Below are positions 12,143 through 19,084 of a stretch of DNA of 22,858 nucleotides, piece by piece; the stretch's first letter is position 1, and each line of letters starts with the position of its first letter. The notes below the pieces were generated by a model. The model did no database searches, was not told the DNA's origin, and was given only the letters and a program-made list of their open reading frames with translations. The DNA comes from Allocoleopsis sp. (lineage in GTDB: Bacteria > Cyanobacteriota > Cyanobacteriia > Cyanobacteriales > Coleofasciculaceae). The DNA lies in contig NZ_DATNPA010000225.1 of assembly GCF_036703385.1 (NCBI RefSeq), forward strand, positions 1-22,858, given 5' to 3'. The position numbers and the translations under genes are program-made.

Positions 12143-15097
12143 ATGACAGGAATAGAATTGCCATCTGTAGTGCCAACATCTTCACCTAATCTTTCTCAGG
12201 CCAAAAGGCGCAAATCCTTATCCCTAGGATGGTTTGATAACTTACCTGTTAAAGGCAAGCAACTCACGGGTTTGTTTACCTCTGAGGTGATCTCAATCGT
12301 CGGACTGGTGGGTGTGGGGGCTGTGTTGATTGTGGCAGCGGGGCGCACTCAATTGGTTCGGCAAGCGGAGTCGGAATTAGCGGTCGCCCAGATCAACTAC
12401 GACTTTAAAATCAACCAGATGGAGTCTAGCTTCCGCGCTCAATCGGACAATGCCGCGATTATTACAGCCGCGATCGCTCATTCTCAAAATAAACCCTTGA
12501 CTCCGGAACTTCGGGGTCAAATCAAGCAGATTCTGCAAAATGAGACTAAGGCGAGCAATATAGAATATGCCACACTAGTGGGCAAAGATCGGCGGATTAT
12601 TGTTAATGCAAATGCTGACCGGACTGGGGAAACCTTCGATCCAAACAACCTAGTCAGTCAAGTCCTGAGCAATTCTAAGCCACTTCAAGCCAGTCAAATT
12701 CTGAGTGGGTCGGACTTATCTAAAGAGTCCCCGTCCCTCGCTCAGGGTTTTGCCAACCAAGATGCCCTCATCCGTTACACGATTACACCCGTGAAAGACC
12801 CGAAAACGGGCACTGTTGTTGGAACCCTCGTTTCCGGAGACATTGTGAATGGGAAGTTGCCGATTGTGGAAAACACCGTGGAAGCGTTTGGAGGGGGCTA
12901 CAGTGCGGTTTATTTCCGTCAGCCTTCTGGGAAACTCGCCTTAGCAACCGGTTTAGACCAAGGTACCACCAAAGATTTGGCGCAAGCGAAACCCAATGTT
13001 CCCCTGCTCGATTCCTCCTTGCTAGAGAAAGCCGTTGCCACTCCGAACCAGGTGCTTACTGGACGAGCCGTTGCAGGAACACAAAGCTACACAGTAGCAG
13101 CTAAAGCCCTCAGCGATGTCAACGGCAAGCCTGTTGCGGTGTTGGTTCGGGGAACAGAAGAAAACGCTTTAAATAAACTCCTCGGCGATAGCCTACTGCT
13201 CCAGCTAGCCGTGTCCGCCCTGACATTAGCGGTGGATGTGGGGTTAGCGGTGTTACTAGGACGAACCATTGCTCAACCGATCAAGCGGCTACAGCAAACG
13301 ACCCAAAGATTTGCGCGGGGCGATCGCCAAGTGCGTGCGAATGCTCTGACGAACGATGAAGTGGGCCAACTTGCCTATACGTTTAATGAATTGGCAGACA
13401 GCATTGTTTTAAATGAAAGAGTTCTGGAACAACAGGCTCGTGATCAAAAAGCTGAAGCCGATCGAGCCCAAGCCTTTGCCGACTTGACCAGTCAGCTCTA
13501 TAAATCGCTCAATGTTGCAGATATCCTCAAAACCTTAGTTGATGGCGTCCGTAGCCTCCTGCAAGCAGACCGCGTGCTGATCTATTTCTTCAAGGAAGGC
13601 TACCAGAGTGGGACAGTCACAGCAGAATCGGCGGTACCCGGTTGGATTAAAGCGATCGATCTAGTCCGATATAACCTATTTGAACCACAGGACATCCAAC
13701 AATTCCAAACGGGACACGTTGTGGTTTGCAATAACATCCGTGAAGGGGGCTATAGGGCTCACCACTTTGATAGTCTCGAATACCTTCAAGTCAAGGCCAA
13801 TATGATTGCGCCCCTGTTTTTAGACAACGAACTCTTGGGTTTAGTGTGTGTTCACCAGTGTTCTGAACCCCGAAACTGGCAGCCACAGGAAATCACGTTA
13901 TTCAAACAGGCAGCGGCTCAGACCAACCTAGCTCTCCAGCAAGCCCATCTGATTGAACAATTAAAACGCGCACGCCAAGAAGCAGAAGCCGGGCGACAGA
14001 AAGCGCTCGAGTTTGCACAGGTCGAACAGGCTCGCCAAGTTGCCGAATTGGCCTCACTTGAGCAACGTCAGCAAAAAGAAGAACTTCAGCGCCAGGTACT
14101 CGACCTGCTCCAGGATATCGAAGGTTCAGCTGATGGAGACTTTACGGTTCGAGCCAACGTGACAGAGGGAACAATTGGTACCGTTGCAGACTTTTTTAAT
14201 GCGATCGTTGAGAATCTGCGGCAGATTGTTCGGCAGGTCAAACAAACGGCTATTCAAGTCAACATGGCTCTCCAAGCCGATGAACAGTCTGTCGAGCAAC
14301 TCTCCCTAGCTGCACTCAAGCAAGCCGATGAAATTAGTCACAGCTTAGAGTCTATCCTGGCGATGACCTCCTCCATTCAAGTCGTGGCAGAGAATGCTCG
14401 CCAAGCGGCAGCCGTGACCCGCGTTGCCTCCACCGCCGCAGAAACTGGTGGAAAGGCGATCGATGCCACGGTGAACAATATTGTGAATTTGCGAGAGAGG
14501 GTCGTTGAAACGACGAATAAGGCAAAAGTTTTGGACGAGTCCTCCAAACAGATTGCCAAAGTCGTGAATCTGGTTCAAGAAATCTCCCTAAAGACTAACT
14601 TGCTGGCGATCAATGCTGGACTAGAGGCCAGCCGTGCAGGTGCAGAGGGTGAAGGCTTCCGAGTCGTTGCCGATCAGATTGGCAGACTCGCCAAGCAATC
14701 GGTGAGTGCAACCCAAGAAATCGAAGAAGTCCTCGAAGTGATTCAGCAGAACACCAAAGGAGTGGTCGAGGCGATGGAAGAGGGTCGAAACCAAGTGATT
14801 AATAGTACTGAAATGATTTTAGATGTTAGACAGAGTCTAGAGGAAATATTTGAGGTTTCACATCAAATTGATGGATTAGTGCAATCCATTTCCGACGCCA
14901 CTGTCTCACAAGCCCAAACTTCTCAGATTGTGACAGCGCTGATGCAAGAAATTGCCCAAATTTCTCAAGAAACGTCCGATTCCTCTCTGCAAGTTTCCAG
15001 CTCACTGCGACAAACTGTGGAGGTGGCTCAACACTTGCAGCAATCAGTTGGTCGCTTCAAAATTGGCTCTTTTGAGGATGGACTCTTGGAAGGTTGA
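12143..15097 (+). CDS. Methyl-accepting chemotaxis protein. Domain order is TM, periplasmic Cache-like sensor, TM, HAMP, GAF, HAMP, MCP signalling domain.
   Basis: TM1 is around residues 43-66 and TM2 around 350-372 (LLLQLAVSALTLAVDVGLAVLLG). A HAMP follows (IAQPIKRLQQTTQRFARGD). The GAF region runs ADRVLIYFF...HHFDSLEYLQVKANMIAPLF...LVCVHQC. A cyanobacterial-type HAMP (DGDFTVRANVTEGTIGTVADFFNAIVENL) is present. The canonical MCP signalling-domain core is TNLLAINAGLEASRAGAEGEGFRVVADQIGRLAKQS. Confidence 0.9.
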   Translation: MTGIELPSVVPTSSPNLSQAKRRKSLSLGWFDNLPVKGKQLTGLFTSEVISIVGLVGVGAVLIVAAGRTQLVRQAESELAVAQINYDFKINQMESSFRAQSDNAAIITAAIAHSQNKPLTPELRGQIKQILQNETKASNIEYATLVGKDRRIIVNANADRTGETFDPNNLVSQVLSNSKPLQASQILSGSDLSKESPSLAQGFANQDALIRYTITPVKDPKTGTVVGTLVSGDIVNGKLPIVENTVEAFGGGYSAVYFRQPSGKLALATGLDQGTTKDLAQAKPNVPLLDSSLLEKAVATPNQVLTGRAVAGTQSYTVAAKALSDVNGKPVAVLVRGTEENALNKLLGDSLLLQLAVSALTLAVDVGLAVLLGRTIAQPIKRLQQTTQRFARGDRQVRANALTNDEVGQLAYTFNELADSIVLNERVLEQQARDQKAEADRAQAFADLTSQLYKSLNVADILKTLVDGVRSLLQADRVLIYFFKEGYQSGTVTAESAVPGWIKAIDLVRYNLFEPQDIQQFQTGHVVVCNNIREGGYRAHHFDSLEYLQVKANMIAPLFLDNELLGLVCVHQCSEPRNWQPQEITLFKQAAAQTNLALQQAHLIEQLKRARQEAEAGRQKALEFAQVEQARQVAELASLEQRQQKEELQRQVLDLLQDIEGSADGDFTVRANVTEGTIGTVADFFNAIVENLRQIVRQVKQTAIQVNMALQADEQSVEQLSLAALKQADEISHSLESILAMTSSIQVVAENARQAAAVTRVASTAAETGGKAIDATVNNIVNLRERVVETTNKAKVLDESSKQIAKVVNLVQEISLKTNLLAINAGLEASRAGAEGEGFRVVADQIGRLAKQSVSATQEIEEVLEVIQQNTKGVVEAMEEGRNQVINSTEMILDVRQSLEEIFEVSHQIDGLVQSISDATVSQAQTSQIVTALMQEIAQISQETSDSSLQVSSSLRQTVEVAQHLQQSVGRFKIGSFEDGLLEG

Positions 15098-19084: not shown

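Follow-up and report, generated by a model that had tools for sequence, protein, structure and literature searches.

Organization of the locus

The window analysed here is the whole of a 22,858 bp (22.8 kb) MAG contig of Allocoleopsis sp., in which four genes of interest lie on the + strand and encode a methyl-accepting chemotaxis protein (MCP), a stand-alone MHYT membrane protein, a protein of 357 residues and a HypX-like enzyme (Table 1). They are separated by gaps of 95, 89 and 203 bp in this order, and these coordinates and gaps match exactly those of an earlier note on this DNA, which had described four co-oriented ORFs with short gaps. An independent ENA contig (L170) has an identical MHYT-357aa-HypX-UvrD order, and the arrangement in the window is thus not an assembly artefact.

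Table 1. Features of the MCP-hypX region
Feature	Position	Strand	Basis
MCP gene	12143-15097	+	ORF, 984 aa
MHYT gene	15193-15936	+	ORF, 247 aa
357-aa protein gene	16026-17099	+	ORF
Terminator-like hairpin, 21-bp arms, then GUGUUUUUUUG	17095..17181	+	Inverted repeat I1, RNA fold
Presence/absence segment, 2,047 bp, hypX and flanks only	17100..19145		blastn break points
AGTTAACCA motif, 34 nt upstream of hypX start	17268..17276	+	Conserved GTTAAC
hypX	17303-19084	+	ORF, 593 aa

The MCP and MHYT genes

The MCP is laid out as a first transmembrane segment, a periplasmic dCache_3 region (29.1 bits against a Pfam cut-off of 25.7), a second transmembrane segment, a HAMP domain (residues 371-421, 47.6 bits), a GAF domain (residues 459-598, 70 bits) that is missing the bilin-binding Cys, and an MCP signalling domain (residues 758-940, 108 bits). 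The transducer had been described as Cache-HAMP-GAF-HAMP, and its dCache, first HAMP, GAF and signalling regions are all recovered by Pfam, although a second HAMP domain was not detected in the same search. The adjacent 247-residue protein scores 161.6 bits (cut-off, 21) with Pfam MHYT (PF03707), a family of six to seven transmembrane segments and three repeated Met-His-Tyr motifs, which here read MHFIAM, MHYTGM and MHYTGM. All three motifs are intact, with M, H and Y residues that are invariant among 20 cyanobacterial homologues, and its description as a free-standing protein with three MHYT motifs therefore stands. Pfam finds no domain in it besides MHYT, and a LytTR DNA-binding domain of the CoxC type is absent. 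We regard this protein as a putative copper-dependent sensor of diatomic gases (CO, O2 or NO) and as the partner of the upstream MCP.

Orthologues of the MCP, 979-985 residues long, sit directly upstream of an MHYT gene in L082-L088, and the MCP-MHYT pair is found without HypX at two genomic locations among five related contigs; in L087/88 the pair is present and the 357-aa gene is absent. On the evidence of gene order, the conserved sensory unit is the MCP-MHYT pair, and it does not need hypX, since the closest relatives keep MCP-MHYT-357aa without it. The MHYT protein of the window is an MCP-associated paralogue, with 55 % identity to the HypX-adjacent MHYT protein of cyanobacterial locus L001. 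An unrelated gene and a terminator-like hairpin stand between the MHYT gene of the window and hypX.

The 357-residue protein

The product of the third gene had been listed as unknown, which no longer applies to its C-terminal half. The protein is cyanobacteria-specific, with a helical N-terminal half and a C-terminal half of the globin-like phycobiliprotein fold, as seen both by Pfam (Phycobilisome, 26.5 bits; cut-off, 22.2) and by a Foldseek search with an AF2 model (pLDDT 84). The top 25 Foldseek matches are all phycobiliproteins, the best being allophycocyanins, with a TM-score of ~0.70 over the target and an rmsd of 2.2-2.4 Å for ~126 residues. Alignment to phycoerythrin alpha places a Thr at the position of the bilin-attachment Cys (Cys82/84); the Arg-Asp pair just after it is retained, without variation among 39 homologues. 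The protein has over 450 homologues, and paralogous copies occur within genomes. In Microcoleus FACHB-53 the MCP and MHYT genes are deleted and the 357-aa gene is still beside uvrD. No homologue is encoded at any of the 160 HypX loci L001-L080 and L090-L169, all of other genomes, and linkage to HypX is seen only in the window and in one related contig, L170. The 357-aa gene is a resident backbone gene outside any CO system and has no demonstrable link to CO.

The hypX segment

The hypX gene lies in a segment that is present or absent as a block. Four related loci (L081-L084) have 22-30 bp in its place and keep MCP-MHYT-357aa-UvrD, and the segment is also missing from L085/86 and present in L170. 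Its mol fraction of G+C is 0.418, and the GC3 of hypX is 0.352, the four adjoining genes being at 0.46-0.51. An initial description of hypX as a recent insertion was softened to a presence/absence polymorphism, because L170, which is more distant than L081/L082 in the flanking genes, carries hypX at the same site. A mobile-element signature was looked for at the indel and rejected, there being neither a target-site duplication nor a repeated element.

The left edge of the segment is marked by the terminator-like hairpin, which overlaps the 357-aa stop codon and is followed by a U-run; both of its arms are unique within the window, and its RNA fold is predicted at −30.6 kcal/mol (z=−2.6). A GTTAAC sequence is found at −33/−34 of hypX in the window, L170, L001 and L090 despite their differing upstream neighbours, and in the window a strong AAGGAGGA ribosome-binding site comes between the AGTTAACCA motif and hypX. 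Promoter and terminator consensus scans gave no more matches than in shuffled sequence. No Rfam family, the THF and ZTP riboswitches included, matches anywhere in the window at the gathering score, and upstream of hypX no Rfam match is seen in 16950-17400 at E-values up to 1.

These features suggest that hypX may be an accessory, separately transcribed gene, and that the region may be a mosaic of three units and no operon. The claim of a conserved four-gene module has not survived the comparison, since hypX is missing from L081-L086 and the 357-aa gene from L087/88, and the hairpin lies inside the proposed unit; of the order MCP/MHYT/357-aa/hypX, which was to be checked in relatives, MHYT-357aa-HypX is common to L170 only.

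HypX and the hydrogenase question

Residues 1-566 of HypX align over the full length of the Aquifex aeolicus HypX structure 6j0p with 568 bits, and Pfam identifies Formyl_trans_N/C and ECH_1, corresponding to an N-domain of formyltransferase type joined to a crotonase-like C-domain, in agreement with the earlier note's view of a full-length HypX-like fusion. The architecture is thus that of HypX/HoxX of both A. aeolicus and Ralstonia eutropha. The catalytic residues reported, in Aquifex numbering, are the His74-Asp80-Asp109 triad and Tyr416/Glu426 (PMC6802093). All five are kept in the window protein as H74, D80, D109, Y425 and E434, the last two being equivalent to Aquifex Y416 and E426, and all are invariant in 80 homologues; the triad and the Tyr/Glu pair of formyl-CoA decarbonylation are hence identical to those of the Aquifex and Ralstonia enzymes. 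HypX is accordingly a predicted CO synthase that would convert N10-formyl-THF through formyl-CoA to CO. Unlike in these two bacteria, hypX in the window lies outside any hyp/hox cluster, as the only gene of a presence/absence segment, preceded by a motif of its own and with a gas-sensor gene nearby. The protein is named 'hydrogenase maturation protein [Allocoleopsis sp.]' by NCBI and likewise as a hydrogenase maturation factor by JGI.

The reported lack of hyp and hydrogenase genes in 22 kb is confirmed for the 22.8-kb contig by Pfam for the larger ORFs, by NCBIfam for two smaller ORFs and by tblastn with HypC/D/E/F, HupH and the large and small hydrogenase subunits as probes, and hypX is thus not beside hyp or [NiFe]-hydrogenase genes within the contig. 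This absence is weak evidence, however, because cyanobacterial hyp genes are often scattered, as they are in Synechocystis, and because a hyp-embedded relative nests among the sensor-linked HypX proteins in our tree: HypX of C. polyendosporum (L174) is 61 % identical to that of the window and is encoded inside a hypFCD-cbiMNQO-hypE-hypX operon. A first tree had suggested that sensor-linked HypX proteins are a separate clade that is never hyp-linked, which was dropped when the hyp-linked L174 and L156 were found inside its groups; judged by the tree, the sensor-linked proteins are no separate family. Acaryochloris plasmids carry hypD, while no hyp gene lies closer than 10 kb to the Acaryochloris hypX on pREB1. 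HypX of the window may thus serve hydrogenase maturation after all.

Recurrence of HypX beside MHYT genes

The 164 HypX loci divide into 70 that neighbour hyp or hydrogenase genes and 94 that do not; an MHYT gene or a gene for a six-helix-membrane (6TM) chemoreceptor is adjacent to none of the former and to 27 of the latter. When only loci with 3 kb or more of flanking sequence on each side are counted, the figures are 0/36 hyp-linked against 15/34 unlinked (Fisher P=2.6×10−6), a test that overstates the significance because the hyp-linked loci are mostly from other taxa; the loci are also phylogenetically non-independent and represent about five independent architectures. HypX-adjacent MHYT genes occur in at least five architectures in three phyla (cyanobacteria, Bacillota and Methylococcales), only at loci without hyp genes, and often in the same orientation as HypX at a spacing of 10-90 bp.

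A divergent stand-alone MHYT gene adjoins HypX in four cyanobacterial loci (L001, L090, L171 and L175), a gene for an MHYT-PAS-GAF-histidine kinase lies 77 bp upstream of HypX in L005, and L091 also has MHYT upstream. No MHYT gene is within reach of HypX at seven other cyanobacterial loci (L002, L004, L006-L009 and L172). Two Bacillaceae loci (L013 and L021) have a gene for an MHYT-PAS-GGDEF-EAL protein 41-55 bp downstream of HypX, and Methylococcales have the order HypX, response regulator-like, MHYT-PAS-histidine kinase, response regulator and hybrid histidine kinase (11 genome and 3 metagenome loci). The HypX-MHYT pairs include those in the isolate genomes of Peribacillus huizhouensis DSM 105481, Bacillus aerolatus CX253 and Ca. 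Methylomicrobium oryzae RS1. In four Bacillota loci HypX comes directly after a chemoreceptor gene, and Brevibacillus sp. SYSU BS000544 is the isolate with a 6TM-MCP gene next to HypX. The six-helix sensor domain of these HypX-adjacent chemoreceptors has no Pfam match, and its candidacy as an MHYT homologue was ruled out by hhalign (probability 0.3 %).

The core idea of the earlier note, a CO-forming enzyme linked to a putative CO sensor, therefore gains support from these architectures, with the window itself not countable as independent evidence because it was flagged for this very adjacency. The position of HypX near an MHYT gene in the window is probably no accident.

Comparison with known systems

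In 2024 the MHYT domain of CoxC from Afipia carboxidovorans was shown to respond to CO via copper, with O2 acting antagonistically (PMC11347149), and the earlier note's mention of MHYT as a proposed copper-dependent CO sensor has thus since been substantiated for one protein. CoxC is an MHYT-LytTR repressor that shares with the window protein an MHYT domain with three Met-His-Tyr motifs and a genomic tie to CO metabolism, but the window protein is without LytTR or any other output domain and has an MCP as its neighbour; moreover, the CoxC-linked enzyme oxidizes CO whereas that of the window is predicted to make it. In the MHYT-GGDEF-EAL proteins NbdA and MucR of Pseudomonas aeruginosa and YkoW of Bacillus subtilis MHYT feeds an output, and the same architecture is seen at the Bacillaceae HypX loci; no ligand-source gene adjacent to those for NbdA and MucR is described in the literature searched, and in the window the output is a separate chemoreceptor. 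HypX is also beside signal-transduction genes in the hoxX-hoxA-hoxBC-hoxJ regions of hydrogen oxidizers, which encode an H2-sensing regulatory system, and three of our loci (L043, L053 and L070) resemble these in having a sigma-54 response regulator and sensor-hydrogenase subunits. In those three, however, sensing is the task of a regulatory [NiFe]-hydrogenase and hyp genes lie alongside, two features that the MHYT-linked loci lack. In the literature searched we found no paper in which MHYT and HypX appear together, no report of HypX linked to sensing and none of a CO-source/CO-sensor coupling of this kind. A 2018 review poses the question of whether CO should count as a 'gasotransmitter' of bacteria at all (PMC6195638).

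Interpretation

The reading that we favour, with a probability of roughly 0.45 for the explanation as a whole, is that of a three-unit mosaic in which the MHYT protein reads HypX-made CO or the CO/O2 balance, this being the most likely logic of the pairing. By analogy with CoxC, the MHYT protein would bind CO, with O2 as a competitor, at a copper site that its three MH[YF] motifs form, and would presumably signal its ligand state, inside the membrane, to the neighbouring MCP, which may relay it onward to the pilus-based taxis machinery; the CO would be made by HypX from formyl-THF via formyl-CoA. Such functional coupling of a CO source and a CO sensor is plausible. The outputs of HypX-adjacent MHYT sensors are a histidine kinase, c-di-GMP turnover or, in the window, an MCP. 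It would be a bolder step, and we think an unlikely one, to regard HypX outside hyp clusters as a dedicated generator of endogenous CO whose copper-MHYT readers drive taxis, c-di-GMP turnover and two-component phosphorelays, as a gasotransmitter circuit without hydrogenase maturation in cyanobacteria, Bacillota and methanotrophs.

It is quite possible, if short of probable, that only the conventional role applies, with HypX supplying CO for an aerobic [NiFe]-hydrogenase (Hox/Hup) encoded elsewhere in the Allocoleopsis genome, the proximity of MHYT incidental, and the MCP-MHYT pair sensing external O2, NO or CO. The database names, the full set of catalytic residues as in the hydrogenase-type enzyme, the nested C. 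polyendosporum HypX, the Acaryochloris plasmids, the scattered hyp genes of Synechocystis and the occurrence of hypX as an indel in its own right, with a separate upstream motif, all fit this account, which nevertheless leaves unexplained why MHYT should turn up beside HypX time and again, in three phyla and five architectures, yet not once where HypX is hyp-linked. That all four genes form one dedicated, hydrogenase-independent module for endogenous-CO signalling or gas taxis seems distinctly improbable: they are co-oriented with short gaps, L170 repeats part of their order, and HypX follows a chemoreceptor gene immediately in four Bacillota loci, but relatives without HypX keep the other genes, the 357-aa homologue is missing from HypX loci other than L170 and stays at uvrD after loss of MCP and MHYT, the hairpin separates it from hypX, and the Bacillota chemoreceptors carry an unrelated sensor domain.

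We consider it very unlikely that the HypX-adjacent MHYT proteins are O2 sensors that switch on aerobic CO synthesis or a fitting behaviour, CO not being the ligand. As known from the R. eutropha protein, hydrogenase maturation depends on HypX mainly under aerobic growth (PMC6802093), O2 too acts on the CoxC domain, and in Methylococcales, where response regulator genes come after that of the MHYT histidine kinase, transcriptional control is possible; however, no direct output to transcription is offered by the stand-alone MHYT protein, the GGDEF-EAL fusions or the MCP, and in CoxC CO is the agonist, which O2 merely reverses.

To our knowledge, HypX is recognized solely as a hydrogenase maturation factor and is the sole dedicated CO synthase, and MHYT, a widespread sensor domain with a ligand established for one protein (CoxC), is the sole copper-type CO sensor domain that we know of. 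Their adjacency across three phyla hints at bacteria that sense their own CO. For the idea of self-made CO as a bacterial signal, the HypX-MHYT linkage offers a concrete, testable pairing, with Peribacillus, Bacillus aerolatus and Methylomicrobium as tractable candidates. Should the CO prove to be used by hydrogenases alone, the linkage would nonetheless suggest that a toxic biosynthetic intermediate is sensed or kept under feedback control.

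HypX loci and adjacent sensors

HypX loci were pooled (n=164) from species-representative genomes (80 loci), metagenomes (80 loci) and look-ups. Genes hypC, D, E or F or hydrogenase subunit genes lie near hypX at 70 of the 164, typically in the order hypC-hypD-hypE-hypX, and an MHYT gene was found at none of these 70; an MHYT protein, or else a certain membrane chemoreceptor, adjoins hypX at 27 of the 94 loci without nearby hyp genes. Where at least 3 kb is present on both sides, a sensor adjoins hypX at 0 of 36 hyp-linked loci versus 15 of 34 unlinked ones (Fisher p = 2.6e-6), a value that overstates the significance, since the loci are phylogenetically related and represent about five independent arrangements, and since most hyp-linked loci belong to Nitrosomonas, Gallionella and their relatives, taxa in which MHYT genes may be scarce. 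The window was chosen for this adjacency and so is not counted as evidence for the association. The core idea of the earlier note, that a source of CO neighbours a sensor for it, gains unexpected comparative support from HypX loci of several lineages (see table). MHYT also lies upstream of hypX in L091, and L003, grouped with L005, is cut by the contig end.

Positions of features in the window and arrangements at compared loci
Locus or group	Feature	Position or detail
Window	Tandem Uma2-family putative endonuclease genes	337-909 (-), 1013-1594 (-)
Window	Segment absent from Microcoleus FACHB-53	4256-11583
Window	588-aa protein gene	4507-6273 (-)
Window	IS605-family tnpB	6495-7748 (-)
Window	Major vault protein homologue gene	7846-10524 (-)
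Window	Chemoreceptor (MCP) gene	12143-15097 (+)
Window	Stand-alone MHYT gene	15193-15936 (+)
Window	357-aa protein gene	16026-17099 (+)
Window	Terminator-like hairpin (21-bp arms), then U-run	from stop codon of 357-aa gene
Window	hypX segment	17100-19145
Window	Strong hypX ribosome-binding site	AAGGAGGA
Window	hypX upstream motif, common to L170, L001 and L090 despite different upstream genes	AGTTAACC, at -34
Window	hypX	17303-19084 (+)
L081 (Microcoleus sp. FACHB-53)	Decayed MCP	9151-9868
L087	588-aa protein homologue gene	2171-3928
L171	ETR1_N-PAS-GGDEF-EAL protein gene	3310-5871
L172	hypX near gcvP and gcvH	4178-7722
Cyanobacteria (L001, L090, L171, L175)	Stand-alone MHYT divergent from hypX	
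Cyanobacteria (L005)	MHYT-PAS-GAF-histidine kinase	77 bp upstream of hypX
Cyanobacteria (window, L170)	MHYT, 357-aa gene, hypX	
Bacillaceae (L013, L021)	hypX, then MHYT-PAS-GGDEF-EAL	41-55 bp apart
Methylococcales (11 genome and 3 metagenome loci)	hypX, receiver-like protein, MHYT-PAS-histidine kinase, response regulator, hybrid kinase	
Bacillota (L012, L014, L019, L115)	Chemoreceptor of 507-510 aa, its gene end 2-27 bp upstream of hypX	L012 367-1890; L014 8445-9977; L019 8450-9973; L115 ~3000-4200

The Bacillota chemoreceptor carries an N-terminal membrane domain of six helices, three of which bear conserved histidines (EYHFSIF, A[IV][QH]HI[VA]G and [FL][IV]HA[VL]FL). We found no Pfam match for this domain and no detectable relation to MHYT; it may represent a new type of membrane sensor for metals or gases. 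ETR1_N is a copper-dependent ethylene-binding domain, and the L171 protein that bears it lies about 3 kb from the divergent MHYT/HypX pair, giving this neighbourhood a second copper-type sensor of small molecules.

The HypX enzyme

HypX is, to our knowledge, the sole known enzyme that forms CO from formyl-THF via formyl-CoA. The identification of the fourth gene of the window as hypX is secure, its product aligning over the full length with the crystal structure of HypX from Aquifex aeolicus (568 bits). It retains His74, Asp80, Asp109 and the Tyr/Glu pair, which serve formyl transfer and formyl-CoA decarbonylation (Muraki et al., PMC6802093), and all five residues are invariant among 80 homologues; because they are intact, we infer that the protein produces CO.

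In one homologue of 906 aa (P0340), HypX is fused with the THF dehydrogenase/cyclohydrolase (FolD) domains PF00763 and PF02882, which would be expected to supply it directly with 10-formyl-THF; Chloroflexia HypX ORFs are of similar length (L017, 901 aa; L028, 845 aa). Two Methyloglobulus MAGs (L016 and L073; L026 and L076) each encode two HypX paralogues on separate contigs, one falling in a subclade of the HypX tree whose members are often preceded by an AraC/DJ-1-type regulator (upstream in L016) and the other grouping with the MHYT-kinase subclade. In one Coleofasciculaceae genome (L172), hypX adjoins a single-domain response regulator, and the glycine-cleavage genes, whose products supply C1-THF units, are some 2.3 kb away, a proximity that could be due to chance.

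Chemoreceptor, MHYT and 357-aa proteins

All four ORFs were recovered with gaps of 95, 89 and 203 bp, as first described. The 984-aa chemoreceptor had been read as Cache-HAMP-GAF-HAMP; Pfam matches include a periplasmic dCache_3 above cut-off, HAMP, GAF and the MCP signalling domain, and a second HAMP was not detected. The 247-aa product of the next gene is indeed a free-standing MHYT domain and nothing else (161.6 bits), with all three MH[YF] motifs intact and their M, H and Y residues invariant among 20 cyanobacterial homologues. These two genes are the conserved unit of the region, since relatives keep the pair without hypX (L082-L086) or without the 357-aa gene (L087/88, where it occupies a different genomic location). 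Microcoleus sp. FACHB-53 can evidently do without the pair: all that is left of the orthologous MCP is two short fragments, called as a 185-aa ORF, and MHYT has been lost, although the genes on either side are intact.

The 588-aa protein has no Pfam or NCBIfam match. In L087 a 72 %-identical homologue is encoded immediately upstream of the MCP-MHYT pair, in divergent orientation. The 588-aa protein may be a third member of this sensory system, split off in the window by TnpB and the vault protein. The TnpB gene (OrfB_IS605 and Cas12f1-like TNB domains) lies between the 588-aa gene and that for an 892-aa homologue of eukaryotic major vault protein (MVP), in which the Vault repeat, Vault_2/3/4 and shoulder domains are all present (Pfam, 214 and 180 bits). 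MVP homologues are unusual in bacteria; this one is kept upstream of MCP in two relatives, L082 and L085. The Uma2 pair (Pfam, 115 and 113 bits) is followed by an HSDR_N_2-like ORF, a 1.7-kb block absent in FACHB-53.

The 357-aa protein, initially listed as unknown, proves to have a phycobiliprotein-fold C-terminal half. It belongs to a cyanobacterial family of more than 450 members, of which each genome encodes several paralogues. The C-terminal half has a weak Phycobilisome match in Pfam, and an AlphaFold model from 39 homologues (mean pLDDT 84) gave best Foldseek matches that are all allophycocyanin-type phycobiliproteins (TM-score ~0.70 over the target, rmsd 2.2-2.4 A). Threonine replaces the bilin-attachment cysteine, the neighbouring Arg-Asp pair is invariant, and conserved cysteines comprise C213 (invariant) and C67, C206, C284 and C301 (at least 90 %); the family may bind a ligand non-covalently. 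None of 160 HypX loci in other genomes contains a homologue, and nothing connects the protein to CO.

Presence, absence and expression of hypX

Close relatives do not bear out a conserved four-gene module. In three contigs from Logan metagenomes (L082-L084, nucleotide identity 87-92 %) the order is MVP...MCP-MHYT-357aa-uvrD, with 30 bp in place of the 2,047-bp segment that holds hypX as its sole gene; hypX is likewise absent from L085/86 (MCP-MHYT-361aa...uvrD) and from FACHB-53, where the 357-aa gene still adjoins uvrD. The arrangement in the window is real, because an independent ENA contig (L170, ~85 % identity) has the identical order MHYT-357aa-hypX-uvrD. hypX is a presence/absence polymorphism, and as the flanks of L170 are more distant than those of L081 and L082, its loss in relatives is as likely as a recent gain. 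The segment is compositionally lighter than the DNA around it, with a GC3 of 0.352 in hypX versus 0.46-0.51 in the four neighbouring genes. The hairpin and U-run, the ribosome-binding site of its own and the shared upstream motif argue that hypX is a separate transcription unit.

Discussion

We favour, tentatively and at a probability of about 0.45, a functional coupling of HypX and MHYT at the window locus. In 2001 Galperin reportedly proposed that MHYT senses diatomic gases in a copper-dependent way. CO has since been found to relieve CoxC repression of cox genes through the MHYT domain (2024), copper being needed for the response and O2 acting as antagonist (PMC11347149). In the window, HypX would convert N10-formyl-THF and CoA to formyl-CoA and then CO, which, by analogy with CoxC, would partition into the membrane and occupy the MHYT copper site in competition with O2. 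The stand-alone MHYT would then modulate the chemoreceptor encoded immediately upstream, as conservation of the pairing at two genomic locations suggests, and the chemoreceptor would bias pilus-based movement.

It is possible, if somewhat doubtful, that HypX conventionally serves hydrogenase maturation and that its adjacency to MHYT is incidental. The contig indeed has no hyp or hydrogenase gene in its 22.8 kb, as noted earlier; hyp genes are scattered in Synechocystis, so this absence says little. Hydrogenase maturation genes can occur alongside an unlinked hypX, as in Acaryochloris, in which hypD is on plasmids and no hyp gene lies within 10 kb of the hypX on pREB1. Clostridium polyendosporum HypX, 61 % identical to that of the window, is encoded within a hypF-hypC-hypD-cbiMNQO-hypE-hypX operon and nests in the tree in a Bacillota group holding MHYT- and MCP-linked genes, which rules out sensor-linked HypX as a separate protein family. 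Incidental adjacency has against it the recurrence of sensors beside unlinked hypX. A strict four-gene CO-taxis module independent of hydrogenase is unlikely: the genes are closely spaced on one strand, but the absence of hypX in relatives and the hairpin and motif before it leave an operon-level interpretation unsupported.

Full-text literature searches found no paper with MHYT and HypX together and none tying HypX to sensing. The pairing of HypX with MHYT is a new association of a known enzyme with a known sensor domain, support for which was not found in the literature searched; only proof that it is independent of hydrogenase would make it categorically new. Relatives lacking hypX would use the MCP-MHYT pair to read gases from outside; with hypX in place, the sensor could report a toxic intermediate destined for hydrogenase, or the internal CO source could set the operating point of the sensor.
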